A stretch of 24,163 nucleotides of DNA from a virus (IMGVR_UViG_2565956616_000001:1-24163); one strand, 5' to 3'. Shown: positions 7,844 through 10,298, counted from the stretch's first letter. Program-made: numbers and translations. Notes: generated by a model not told the origin, from the letters alone.

Positions 7844-10298
7844 TTTTTATGCGCCGCCCCATAGCATCGAGGCAGAGCAGGCGGTGATTGGTGGATTGCT
7901 TCTGGATGATGACAGCAGTGAGCGCGTCCAGAAAGTTCTGGCGATGCTGAAGCCCGATTCATTTTACAGCCGACCACACAAAATCCTTTTCGAAGAAATA
8001 ACCAGAATGCACCGGGAGCAAAAGCCAGTAGATGGCCTGACGCTTTTCGATGAACTGGAGCGTAAATCGTTAACGGCGTCTGTTGGCGGTTTTGCTTATA
8101 TCGCTGAGATCGCAAAGAACACGCCAAGCGCCGCAAACATCGTTGCCTATGCAATGCAGGTTCGTGAAACCGCAATGGAACGCTACGCCATCAACCGCAT
8201 GACTGAAGCGACGGAATTGCTCTATTCCCGCAACGGAATGACTGCAACGCAGAAGTACGAAGCTATTCAGGCGATTTTCACGCAACTGACAGACCATGCA
8301 AAAACCGGATCGCGTCGCGGCCTTCGCTCATTTGGTGAGGTCATGGAAGACTGGGTTAGCGACCTTGAGAAGCGATTTGACCCGTCAGGCGAACAACGAG
8401 GAATGAGCACAGGGATCCCATCGCTGGACAGGATGCTGTCACCGAAAGGTCTGGTGAAAGGCTCTCTGTTTGTCATTGGCGCTCGCCCTAAGATGGGGAA
8501 AGCGCAACCGCTTAATTCACGCATTTTGCTTGCTGATGGTTCATGGACAACATTTCGTGACGTATGTGTTGGAGATTCCCTAGCATCAGTGGATGGACAA
8601 CCATCATTCGTGTCTGGAGTTTTTCCTCAAGGGGAGCGAGATATTTACCGAGTTACGTTCTCTGACGGAAGAACCGTTGATTGCGCGGATGATCATTTGT
8701 GGGAGATTCATAGTAACCGTATTACCGGTGGCGTTGATGTTGTAGACACCTGCCGCCTACGGGACATGATGGAATGCGTTCGCTATCAAAGCCGCATTCA
8801 TGTTCCTGGTATTAGCGGTGACTTCGGATTGCCTGTTGATTTAGGGATTAGCCCATGGCTGTTAGGTGCGTTACTTGGCGATGGAAATCTTGCAGGTACG
8901 CCACGAATCAGCATGACGGAACCATACATCATTGAGCGAGTAAGATCTGAAGTGGGTGACGATATTGAAGTCAGGCATGTTTCTGGCTGCGATTACTCCC
9001 TATCTCACAAGTTTAGCCGCAAATTATCTCTTACGCGGGTTATGCAACGGCTTGGTATCTACGGCCGGATGTCAGAGATTAAAATTATCCCGGATATTAT
9101 TTTTTCTGCTGATAAGCAAACTCGTATTGATGTTCTATGCGGATTACTTGAAACCGATGGTTGGGTTGAAGGAAATAATGCCCTGCGCTTTAGCTCGGCA
9201 AGCAAGTTCCTGTCAGATGGTGTAAAGCGGCTGGTGCATTCTCTTGGTGGCGCGTGTCGTATGACAACCAAACAGGAGCCGAAATTCAGTTATAAGGGAG
9301 AAATGCGCAAAGGTATGGATGCCCATATTTGCGCAATCAGGTTGCCTGATGAGGTTCTATCACACATAAAATCTCCACGCCTGAAGCAAAAATTCACTGC
9401 AAAACGCATCAAAACAAGTGCGCCTGTTATCACGTCGGTTGAGTATATTGGACGTGAAGAGTGCATTTGCATCATGGTATCCCACGAGAGACATTTGTAT
9501 GCAACTGACGGATACATTCTAACTCACAACACCACGCTATACAGCCAGATGGCAATCAACTGCGCAGTGCATGAGAAAAAGCCCGCTCTGATGTTCAGCC
9601 TTGAAATGCCAGGTGACCAGATACTGGAAAAACTGGTAGGGCAGAAGTCAGGTGTTAACCCGAATATTTTTTACCTTCCGGCGACAAATGACGCCGATGA
9701 CGGCTATCAGGGTGATTACGATGGTGACTTCAACAGGGCGATCGAAACAGCCAATCGCTTGAGTGAAATCGACATGCTTTACATCGACGACACGCCGGGA
9801 TTATCTCTGGCTCAAATCGTCAGCGAAAGCCGTCGAATCAAACGAGAAAAAGGATGTGTTGGCATGATTCTGGTCGATTACCTGACACTAATGACCGCTG
9901 AAAAGGCCGATCGCAACGACCTTGCTTACGGCATGATCACCAAAGGACTGAAGAACCTTGCCAAAGAGCTTGATTGCGTTGTTGTGCTTCTGACGCAGCT
10001 TAACCGCGCATTGGAAAGCCGAACCAATAAACGCCCATTACCAAGTGACTCGCGAGATACAGGGCAGATTGAACAGGATTGCGATTATTGGGTGGGGATC
10101 CATCGGGAAGGTGCTTTTGATGACAGCGTTCCTCCTGGTGAAACCGAACTAATCCTTCGTCTCAATCGTCATGGCAATACCGGCACGGTGTATTGCATAC
10201 AGGCAAATGGCGCTATTTATGACACAGACCAACAGTCTGCTGAAATGCGCCGCCGTGAACGCGAGGAACCGCAGTCCAAGAAGAAAGGAGGATTCTGA
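7833..10298 (+). CDS. dnaB: DnaB-family replicative helicase interrupted in frame by an intein
   Basis: N-terminus FYAPPHSIEAEQAVIGGLLLDDD is the DnaB N-domain signature; Walker A GARPKMGK is split from TTLYSQMAINCAV...PALMFSLEMP by a 343-aa insertion; C-terminal RecA-like motifs present (ILVDYLTLM, VVVLLTQLNR). ATG 7833 has GAGGGTG RBS; the track's GTG 7818 is an alternative start. Confidence 0.9.
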   Translation: MTDNFYAPPHSIEAEQAVIGGLLLDDDSSERVQKVLAMLKPDSFYSRPHKILFEEITRMHREQKPVDGLTLFDELERKSLTASVGGFAYIAEIAKNTPSAANIVAYAMQVRETAMERYAINRMTEATELLYSRNGMTATQKYEAIQAIFTQLTDHAKTGSRRGLRSFGEVMEDWVSDLEKRFDPSGEQRGMSTGIPSLDRMLSPKGLVKGSLFVIGARPKMGKAQPLNSRILLADGSWTTFRDVCVGDSLASVDGQPSFVSGVFPQGERDIYRVTFSDGRTVDCADDHLWEIHSNRITGGVDVVDTCRLRDMMECVRYQSRIHVPGISGDFGLPVDLGISPWLLGALLGDGNLAGTPRISMTEPYIIERVRSEVGDDIEVRHVSGCDYSLSHKFSRKLSLTRVMQRLGIYGRMSEIKIIPDIIFSADKQTRIDVLCGLLETDGWVEGNNALRFSSASKFLSDGVKRLVHSLGGACRMTTKQEPKFSYKGEMRKGMDAHICAIRLPDEVLSHIKSPRLKQKFTAKRIKTSAPVITSVEYIGREECICIMVSHERHLYATDGYILTHNTTLYSQMAINCAVHEKKPALMFSLEMPGDQILEKLVGQKSGVNPNIFYLPATNDADDGYQGDYDGDFNRAIETANRLSEIDMLYIDDTPGLSLAQIVSESRRIKREKGCVGMILVDYLTLMTAEKADRNDLAYGMITKGLKNLAKELDCVVVLLTQLNRALESRTNKRPLPSDSRDTGQIEQDCDYWVGIHREGAFDDSVPPGETELILRLNRHGNTGTVYCIQANGAIYDTDQQSAEMRRREREEPQSKKKGGF
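8502..9530 (+). mobile_element. intein (343 aa) with LAGLIDADG homing endonuclease domain, inserted between Lys and Thr of the helicase Walker A motif
   Basis: Removing residues A229-N571 restores a contiguous P-loop GARPKMGK-TTLYSQ; C-terminal block G GYILTHN followed by +1 Thr; two LAGLIDADG motifs (LLGALLGDGNLAG and LCGLLETDGWV); Hint-like N-terminal block ILLADGSWTTF. Confidence 0.8.

Follow-up and report, generated by a model that had tools for sequence, protein, structure and literature searches.

A probable class 3 intein with a LAGLIDADG homing endonuclease in the P-loop of a DnaB-family helicase of Escherichia coli prophages

What is the segment that splits the replicative helicase gene of a lambdoid prophage of Escherichia coli exactly at its ATP-binding loop? 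The window analysed here is the whole stretch IMGVR_UViG_2565956616_000001:1-24163 (24,163 nucleotides), which comes from a contig of E. coli 113303 and carries a P22-like (Lederbergvirus-type) lambdoid prophage with IME10 and HK620 as its nearest phages. At positions 8502-9530 of the plus strand an in-frame insert of 1029 nucleotides, encoding 343 residues, stands between the Lys and the Thr of the Walker A motif of the helicase; it reads AQPLNSRILL...GYILTHN and is flanked by GARPKMGK and TTLYSQMAINCAV (the TTLYSQ side). A first-pass annotation had taken it for a complete, potentially mobile intein with homing endonuclease, and its coordinates, its placement in the P-loop, the ILTHN end followed by Thr+1, which can be read directly, and its two LAGLIDADG motifs were all found as described. 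We consider the insert to be a bona fide class 3 intein with a double-motif LAGLIDADG homing endonuclease, at a probability of about 0.8, on the basis of the observed exact insertion, the fold, the class-defining residues, the purifying selection and a population signature of horizontal spread.

The position of the insert can be fixed to the nucleotide. When it is deleted in silico, the motif GxxxxGKT is restored as GARPKMGKT and a helicase of 478 residues results (about 480 had been expected), all 478 of which are identical to protein P of phage HK620. In the intein-free alleles (n=82: HK620, STEC299 and 80 IMG/VR contigs), a comparison that the first-pass annotation had proposed, ATGGGGAAA is followed directly by ACGACGCTA, with Lys joined to Thr and nothing between them. 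The boundary lies exactly between Lys and Ala at one end and between Asn and Thr at the other, with no room for sliding, because neither the opening nor the closing base of the insert equals the flank base beside it. A megablast search against 50,697 phage genomes returned 87 records that match the two flanks only (1452 of 2481 nucleotides, 98.6-98.9% identity), including HK620, HK633, HK630, VT2-Sakai and many Shiga toxin (Stx) phages. At the level of DNA the insert is therefore what an intein is expected to be, a precisely delimited in-frame insertion at a conserved site of a host protein. Two other explanations of the junction were tried and rejected: an N-terminal boundary elsewhere, for example at Ser6, which would make the element a class 1 intein, disagrees with the intein-free alleles, which fix the junction between Lys and Ala, and an assembly artefact disagrees with the presence of the insert in 18 complete genomes and 12 IMG/VR contigs.

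The interrupted reading frame extends from GTG 7818 to the stop codon ending at 10298 (826 codons), and counted from this GTG the insert comprises residues 229-571, as given in the first-pass annotation. That frame exists, but the likely start of the gene is ATG 7833, because a Shine-Dalgarno sequence (GAGGGTG) lies upstream, the PGAP pipeline uses this start in other genomes and the GenBank protein ESA68746.1 of E. coli 113303 is exactly the 821-residue product. The precursor gene then occupies 7833-10298 of the plus strand, stop included, and encodes a phage replicative helicase of the DnaB family with an intein at residues 224-566 of 821 (91.7 kDa). The precursor scores 559.3 bits against the NCBIfam model TIGR03600 (“phage replicative helicase, DnaB family”; cut-off 498.65 bits) in two stretches that are split at the intein, and its match to Pfam DnaB_C is split likewise; with the score above the cut-off and both the N- and C-terminal Pfam domains of DnaB present, the host protein is the DnaB-type helicase of a lambdoid prophage that had been proposed. 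The N-extein (7833-8501, plus strand, 223 residues) contains the DnaB N-terminal domain (Pfam, E 8e-31), the linker and the first half of Walker A, GARPKMGK, and is 99.55% identical in nucleotide sequence to the HK620 P gene. The C-extein (9531-10298, plus strand, 255 residues and the stop), with 98.4% identity to the same gene, begins with Thr+1 (ACC, 9531-9533), which completes Walker A as GKT, and contains the DnaB C-terminal ATPase domain (DnaB_C, E 2e-53).

Within the element itself (8502-9530, plus strand, 38.2 kDa) three parts can be distinguished, of which the first and the last together form the HINT splicing domain. Its N-terminal part with blocks A and B comprises approximately residues 1-103 (8502-8810, plus strand, boundary approximate), as seen from searches with phmmer against PDB sequences, from an alignment with the Bethlehem intein and from the secondary structure of a model; it includes Ala1 (8502-8504), His65 (8694-8696) and Trp67 at position 12 of block B (8700-8702). 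The C-terminal part with blocks F and G (9417-9530, plus strand) is placed by alignments with the inteins DnaBi1 and Bethlehem and by its invariance in family alignments, and includes Cys323 at position F:4 (9468-9470), Thr341 at G:5 (9522-9524), His342 (9525-9527) and Asn343 (9528-9530). Between them lies the LAGLIDADG homing-endonuclease domain, approximately residues 104-305 (8811-9416, plus strand, boundaries approximate), identified by Pfam, conservation and fold. Its first motif, WLLGALLGDGNL, is encoded at 8856-8891 with Asp127 at 8880-8882, and its second, IDVLCGLLETDGW, at 9126-9164 with Asp219 at 9156-9158, both on the plus strand.

The splicing lobes match the PDB sequences of the gp41-1 intein, of Mycobacterium smegmatis DnaBi1 (6BS8) and of M. 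chimaera DnaB-1 (6RIX) in phmmer searches, the E-values for 6RIZ, 6BS8 and 6RIX ranging from 1.5e-8 to 4e-6 (6BS8 1e-6, 6RIX 4e-6), and the middle of the insert matches PI-SceI, weakly, and PI-PkoII. An AlphaFold2 model of the insert built with 23 homologues reached a mean predicted local distance difference test (pLDDT) score of 91.2 and a predicted template modelling (pTM) score of 0.90. Foldseek comparison of this model with the PDB gave the intein endonucleases PI-SceI (E 3e-17, query TM-score (TMq) 0.74), TliVMA and PI-PfuI as best matches, followed by class 3 mini-inteins on the HINT part, with only inteins among the strong matches. Blocks A, B, F and G of a HINT fold are thus accounted for by sequence matches and by the model. 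The isolated insert also exceeds the cut-off of Pfam LAGLIDADG_3 (24.4 bits against 22.5), the model has helices at 118-125 and 205-219 in the LAGLIDADG region, and both motifs end in Asp (LLGALLGD127G and LCGLLETD219G), the motifs and the Asp at the catalytic position being kept in relatives. Together with the structural matches, the two helices with acidic ends correspond to a double-motif LAGLIDADG enzyme with its alpha-beta-beta-alpha-beta-beta-alpha pseudo-dimer fold. The C-terminus is that of a splicing protein, His342-Asn343 followed by Thr+1, and is conserved wherever relatives retain the junction.

Class 3 inteins are defined by the absence of a nucleophile at position 1, by a triplet of Trp (B:12), Cys (F:4) and Thr (G:5), hereafter the WCT triplet, and by Ser or Thr at +1, and their usual site is the P-loop of a helicase-like ATPase (PMC2807308, PMC3196547, PMC5050341). 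The insert has Ala1 (codon GCG), Trp67, Cys323, Thr341, His342, Asn343 and Thr+1, that is, no Cys, Ser or Thr at position 1, a complete WCT triplet and Thr+1 at the site between GK and T of Walker A. A HMMER alignment pairs its W67, C323 and T341 with W67, C118 and T137 of M. smegmatis DnaBi1 (PDB 6BS8), and a pairwise alignment pairs H65, W67, C323, I324, T341, H342, N343 and T+1 with H65, W67, C320, I321, T339, H340, N341 and T+1 of the Bethlehem intein. Wherever the blocks are present, relatives with 27-52% identity keep DHLW, VTHN followed by T and, in C-x-C-I, the second Cys; their position 1 is Ala or Ser. Membership of class 1 fails because position 1 is an Ala without a nucleophile and the DNA boundary is fixed, and membership of class 2 (the KlbA type) fails because the WCT triplet is present, class 2 inteins having Ala1 without it (PMC2807308). 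The first-pass annotation had called the C-terminus canonical; the intein as a whole is not, as its residue 1 is Ala instead of Cys or Ser, a point that had been missed along with the class 3 character. Tori and Perler reportedly widened class 3 in 2011 and suggested a phage origin for it.

The closest published relative is the intein of the phages phi24B (vB_EcoP_24B) and Min27, to which the insert aligns over its full length in tblastn (E 1e-86, 46% identity), a likeness far beyond chance, as is the complete identity of the spliced extein with HK620 P. The insert in protein P of phi24B was recognised as an intein by Smith et al. in 2012 (PMC3430580). Like the element described here, the phi24B/Min27 intein stands between the Lys and the Thr of a P-loop (GVNGHGK/A...THN/T and GHGK/ACPLNE...ATHN/TEVV, with slashes at the junctions) in a lambdoid E. 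coli phage, and it shares Ala1, DHLW, ECLCIMV, THN and Thr+1, likewise has two LAGLIDADG motifs and, at 342 residues against 343, is nearly as long. In contrast to it, the host is a non-orthologous protein P, a TOPRIM primase/gp4-type helicase and not a DnaB-family helicase, the sequences have diverged by 54%, and the carriers are Stx2a phages instead of P22-like prophages. Both phi24B and Min27 are isolated and sequenced phages that hold this homologous intein in an essential replication gene. InBase reportedly lists a class 3 intein under the name “EP-Min27 primase”.

The mechanism of the founding class 3 intein, Bethlehem “MP-Be DnaB”, has been established biochemically (PMC2807308). It resembles the present element in lacking a nucleophile at position 1, in His65, Trp67, Cys F:4, Thr-His-Asn and Thr+1, in its LAGLIDADG domain and in its length of 341 residues, and differs in having Pro1 where Ala1 is found here, in its distant sequence, in its other host protein and in its actinobacteriophage origin. 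The copy used for comparison agrees with the published description (Gln-1/Pro1, 341 residues, Asn341/Thr+1) and is encoded in gp10 (L112 7260-9971), which is now annotated as the terminase large subunit and is not the DnaB-like helicase gp61; a tblastn search of the region around gp61 (30-52 kb of Bethlehem) gave no intein match. The name “MP-Be DnaB” is therefore misleading, because the intein lies in a gene for the terminase large subunit. The inteins M. smegmatis DnaBi1 (6BS8) and M. chimaera DnaB-1 (6RIX) share the DnaB P-loop insertion, the WCT triplet and the matches in sequence and HINT structure, but they are mini-inteins without endonuclease in cellular DnaB proteins of Actinobacteria, and DnaBi1 has Ser+1 (PMC6195587) instead of Thr+1. 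PI-SceI of yeast VMA1, to which the model with both its domains is most similar in structure, has the same HINT and LAGLIDADG architecture; unlike the insert it is a class 1 intein (Cys1, Cys+1) with about 15% identity, a eukaryotic host and an extra DNA-recognition region.

Sister lineages of the element (P0001, P0006, P0007 and L101) share the junction GARPKMGK/A...VTHN/TTLYSQ and the architecture, and their exteins are about 80% identical, yet their inteins are only 48-52% identical to the one described here. From this disparity it follows that the P-loop site of the lambdoid helicase family either received inteins on more than one occasion or has long held one while its flanks recombined. 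Relatives with about 50% identity occupy the same site in Aeromonas piscicola (L104) and Leminorella grimontii (L105), and the copy L099, with an intein 87% identical in amino acid sequence, occupies it in a third helicase type. The family also includes inteins of cellular-type DnaB (AQPLDARV..., about 40%) and of PhoH/RecD-like ATPases (SQPLDA..., about 33%). A scan of GTDB representative genomes with this intein alone found no relative, and a scan with an alignment of three sequences found only the relatives with about 50% identity in Aeromonas and Leminorella together with distant actinobacterial LAGLIDADG domains. In one protein from NCBI/Logan (P0002, 565 residues) the helicase N-extein is followed by the intein's first ~109 residues (99% identical) and then directly by a PF11134 protein, which we take to be a phage stabilisation protein; the fusion suggests a large deletion in a decaying prophage.

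How the element is distributed today speaks for mobility. Among 5,426 complete E. coli genomes the intein is found in 18 (identity at least 99.4%) and the uninterrupted HK620-type junction in 357, which corresponds to an occupancy of about 5%. The helicase is of the HK620 type in 16 of the 18; the remaining two, the frog isolates ET846 and ET791, have the intein in a second helicase type with only 67% (N-extein) and 70% (C-extein) nucleotide identity, and there it differs at 6 of 1029 nucleotides (99.4% identical). Intein-free alleles of this second type occur in seven genomes. Of the IMG/VR copies, all with intact frames, nine close ones interrupt an HK620-type helicase, two a helicase of the second type, and a more diverged one a helicase of the third. 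Besides the present copy 15 were checked, and none contains a stop codon. The 12 intein-bearing genes of the HK620 type represent 12 different extein haplotypes, for ten of which the nearest allele is an intein-free one, and the nucleotide diversity of the intein is five-fold lower than that of its own exteins (0.31% against 1.67%).

The only site that separates occupied from empty alleles is the third base of the Thr+1 codon, which is C in 12 of 12 and G in 81 of 81. Across a wider comparison (loci L001, L005, L006 and L089-L100 against L003, L004 and L009-L088), each of the 16 intein-bearing copies examined has ACC, and each of the 82 HK620-type alleles without an intein has ACG. Behind this linkage stands either co-conversion over a minimal tract or an endonuclease that prefers certain target sites. 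In TOK-001, the second helicase type without an intein, the codon is ACC already, and GGT replaces GGG at -4.

Selection can be measured against the 81%-identical copy L099, from which the intein differs with a ratio of non-synonymous to synonymous substitution rates (dN/dS) of 0.063 overall (dS about 1.15); taken separately, the N-terminal splicing region gives 0.061, the endonuclease 0.074 and the C-terminal splicing region 0.027. In composition the intein is foreign to its gene, its GC content at third codon positions being 0.405 against 0.56 and 0.52 in the exteins. These results indicate an element that is under selection for both of its activities and that has recently spread horizontally over existing helicase diversity, taking with it few flanking bases at most. 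As a sequence-level signature of recent homing the pattern would be unusually clean. The claim of a complete and potentially mobile element is thus borne out by the LAGLIDADG_3 match, the class 3 matches in the PDB, the PI-SceI-like fold and clear signs of mobility.

For the class 3 intein described here we infer splicing, the order of its chemical steps and DNA cleavage along the following lines. The precursor of 91.7 kDa would be unable to bind ATP and inactive as an ATPase because its P-loop is split, by analogy with other P-loop inteins (PMC6195587). The thiol of Cys323, aided by His65 and Trp67, would attack the bond between Lys(-1) and Ala1 and form a branched thioester intermediate, from which the N-extein would be handed to the hydroxyl group of Thr+1 in a second branched intermediate. 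Cyclisation of Asn343 with the aid of His342 and Thr341 would then free the 38.2-kDa intein, and an O-to-N acyl shift would yield a helicase of 53.5 kDa identical to that of HK620. The freed intein would cut intein-free helicase alleles around the site formed by AAGATGGGGAAA and ACGACGCT when related phages or prophages meet within one cell, and recombinational repair off the intein-bearing copy would copy in the intein and a few flanking bases, possibly helped by the Erf-type recombinase of the prophage itself or by recombinases of co-resident phages. Comparison of the junctions places the left half of the putative homing site, AAGATGGGGAAA, at 8490-8501, identical in both main intein-carrying helicase lineages, and the right half, ACCACGCT, at 9531-9538, both on the plus strand.

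Several points weigh against the reading of the insert as a functional class 3 homing intein. The isolated insert scores only 20.9 bits against Pfam Hom_end_hint, below the cut-off of 32.1, and no stand-alone intein model of NCBIfam was passed, with sub-threshold matches to intein-containing equivalogs only. Judged from the model, the fold is nevertheless clearly HINT, and of the Pfam check suggested in the first-pass annotation the LAGLIDADG_3 part succeeded while a reliance on the Hint model would have misled. The residues K319 and D324 of Bethlehem block F correspond to Ile322 and Ser327 in this intein, and their replacement by Ala in Bethlehem lowered splicing at 30 °C, an effect rescued at 15 °C (PMC2807308). 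Even for the phi24B relative the function is “yet to be experimentally determined” (PMC3430580). Recent polymorphisms of the intein include nine non-synonymous and seven synonymous changes, none of them at a catalytic residue. The diversity of the flanks could stem in part from ordinary recombination after a single insertion; this is insufficient as an explanation because a near-identical intein is also found in helicases that are only 67-70% identical. Finally, the intein is absent from the 50,697 deposited phage genomes, while 87 of them hold the intein-free allele, and the copies found all come from prophages or metagenome contigs, which leaves viable virions a supposition. We infer compatibility with lytic growth from selection, from spread and from the homologous intein in phi24B and Min27.

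The same absence from isolated phage genomes would fit a dead relic, a decayed and non-splicing intein that leaves the helicase inactive and the prophage replication-defective. Such a relic would also explain why PGAP marks both halves of the gene as pseudogenes, and it has a precedent in the inactive class 3-like intein Arth_1007 of Arsp-FB24, which lies in a prophage remnant (PMC3196547), as well as a parallel in the truncated and fused intein of P0002 in a related genome. It is nonetheless very unlikely, as the catalytic residues are all intact, dN/dS is 0.06 over both domains, the frame is open in every copy checked and the extein shows 100% identity to a phage helicase that works. The recent move into helicases with 67-70% identity would require a working endonuclease, and a non-splicing insert in an essential gene would hardly last across E. 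coli, Salmonella and Shigella on 12 haplotypes of the extein. If the intein does splice, it could do so by other chemistry, with Thr+1 attacking the N-terminal junction directly as in class 2 (KlbA-like) inteins, or by a variant without the block F thioester. Ala1 is the first residue of class 2 KlbA inteins as well, the class 3 mechanism is a proposal here, and the auxiliary residues of block F are unlike those of Bethlehem. Class 2 inteins are without the WCT triplet, however, which in published work co-varies with the loss of the nucleophile at position 1, and the F:4 Cys of Bethlehem is absolutely required (PMC2807308). Since Trp, Cys and Thr are kept across the family wherever the blocks are present, and Thr+1 in place of Cys+1 fits class 3, we regard this chemistry as highly improbable.

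A different question is whom the splicing serves. The intein might be a domesticated regulator whose conditional splicing, for example under redox or zinc control through Cys321 and Cys323, gates the helicase after induction, with the endonuclease of secondary importance. The class 3 intein in the DnaB P-loop of M. smegmatis is reversibly inhibited by oxidation through its catalytic Cys (PMC6195587), a Cys-x-Cys is conserved at the catalytic position here and the intein has ten cysteines in all, and the authors of the phi24B study speculated on regulation of this kind (PMC3430580). An intein present in only about 5% of alleles, with the intein-free allele as the norm among deposited phage genomes, makes a poor fit to such a role; purifying selection acts on the endonuclease domain just as it does on the splicing domain, and the distribution resembles selfish spread, which leaves domestication through a hypothetical conditionality a distinctly remote prospect. 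The two roles might also be combined, so that the intein would be an actively homing parasite, now spreading among P22-like and lambdoid prophage helicases of E. coli, Salmonella and Shigella, and at the same time, through its class 3 chemistry with the conserved Cys321-x-Cys323, a redox- or metal-conditional gate on prophage replication after induction. This, too, is doubtful and would come as a surprise; HK620 would supply the isogenic intein-free control for it.

Such an element was hardly expected in these hosts, as inteins seem to be lacking in E. coli and Salmonella according to a paper of 2016 (PMC5050341). As class 3 inteins are established residents of helicase P-loops in phages and bacteria, the kind of element is known; this member is undescribed. 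Whether it had been catalogued was left open in the first-pass annotation: a search of the literature found no description of this intein, only the paper on the 46%-identical homologue in phi24B/Min27 (PMC3430580). In GenBank the 821-residue protein is named “helicase DnaB” or “replicative DNA helicase”, and its 90%-identity cluster, drawn from E. coli, Salmonella enterica and Shigella boydii, has at least 449 deposited members, with an intein in no listed name. None of the 18 complete genomes has an annotated feature under the 1029 nucleotides of the intein, and in the three RefSeq genomes inspected PGAP renders the gene as two pseudogenes, “incomplete; partial in the middle of a contig” (L001 8332-10797 in PK5, L005 1838-4264 in ET846 and L006 1832-4297 in EA7). 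This mis-annotation of the intein-bearing helicase by RefSeq/PGAP is systematic, and pipelines that judge prophage intactness from it could score the replication gene as broken. The practical value of the element thus lies in annotation and in a tractable model: the spliced product would be identical to the helicase of HK620, a phage that can be cultivated, and alleles with and without the intein coexist in nature, so that class 3 splicing and intein homing could conveniently be studied in E. coli within their native phage setting.

Around the helicase the genes of the prophage are arranged in order, with erf and ssb, a cI-like repressor (5286-6017, minus strand), cII and O (6953-7843) before the helicase, and ninB, an antirepressor, a putative Q-like antiterminator, the lysis genes and the genes for terminase, portal, scaffold and coat after it. 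No RNA family of Rfam was found within the window. Between the helicase and ninB lie two small open reading frames without Pfam match, one of 68 residues (10374-10580, plus strand) that is very hydrophobic and probably encodes a small membrane protein, and one of 104 residues (10598-10912, plus strand). Further downstream an open reading frame of 170 residues (13930-14442, plus strand) with HNH_3 (E 2e-18) and AP2 (E 2e-8) domains is placed between a 172-residue frame in the position of the Q-like antiterminator (13217-13735) and the holin gene; it looks like a free-standing homing-endonuclease-type gene of the HNH-AP2 kind and would be a second putative mobile endonuclease of this prophage. 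In the early-left region near the immunity genes, a 212-residue frame (3766-4404, minus strand) is covered in full by a match of 240 bits to Pfam Nmad5 (nucleotide modification associated domain 5) and may be a moron or accessory gene. Adjoining the recombination module of ssb and erf, a frame of 182 residues (889-1437, minus strand) contains a full-length Rv2179c-like 3'-5' exoribonuclease domain (246 bits).

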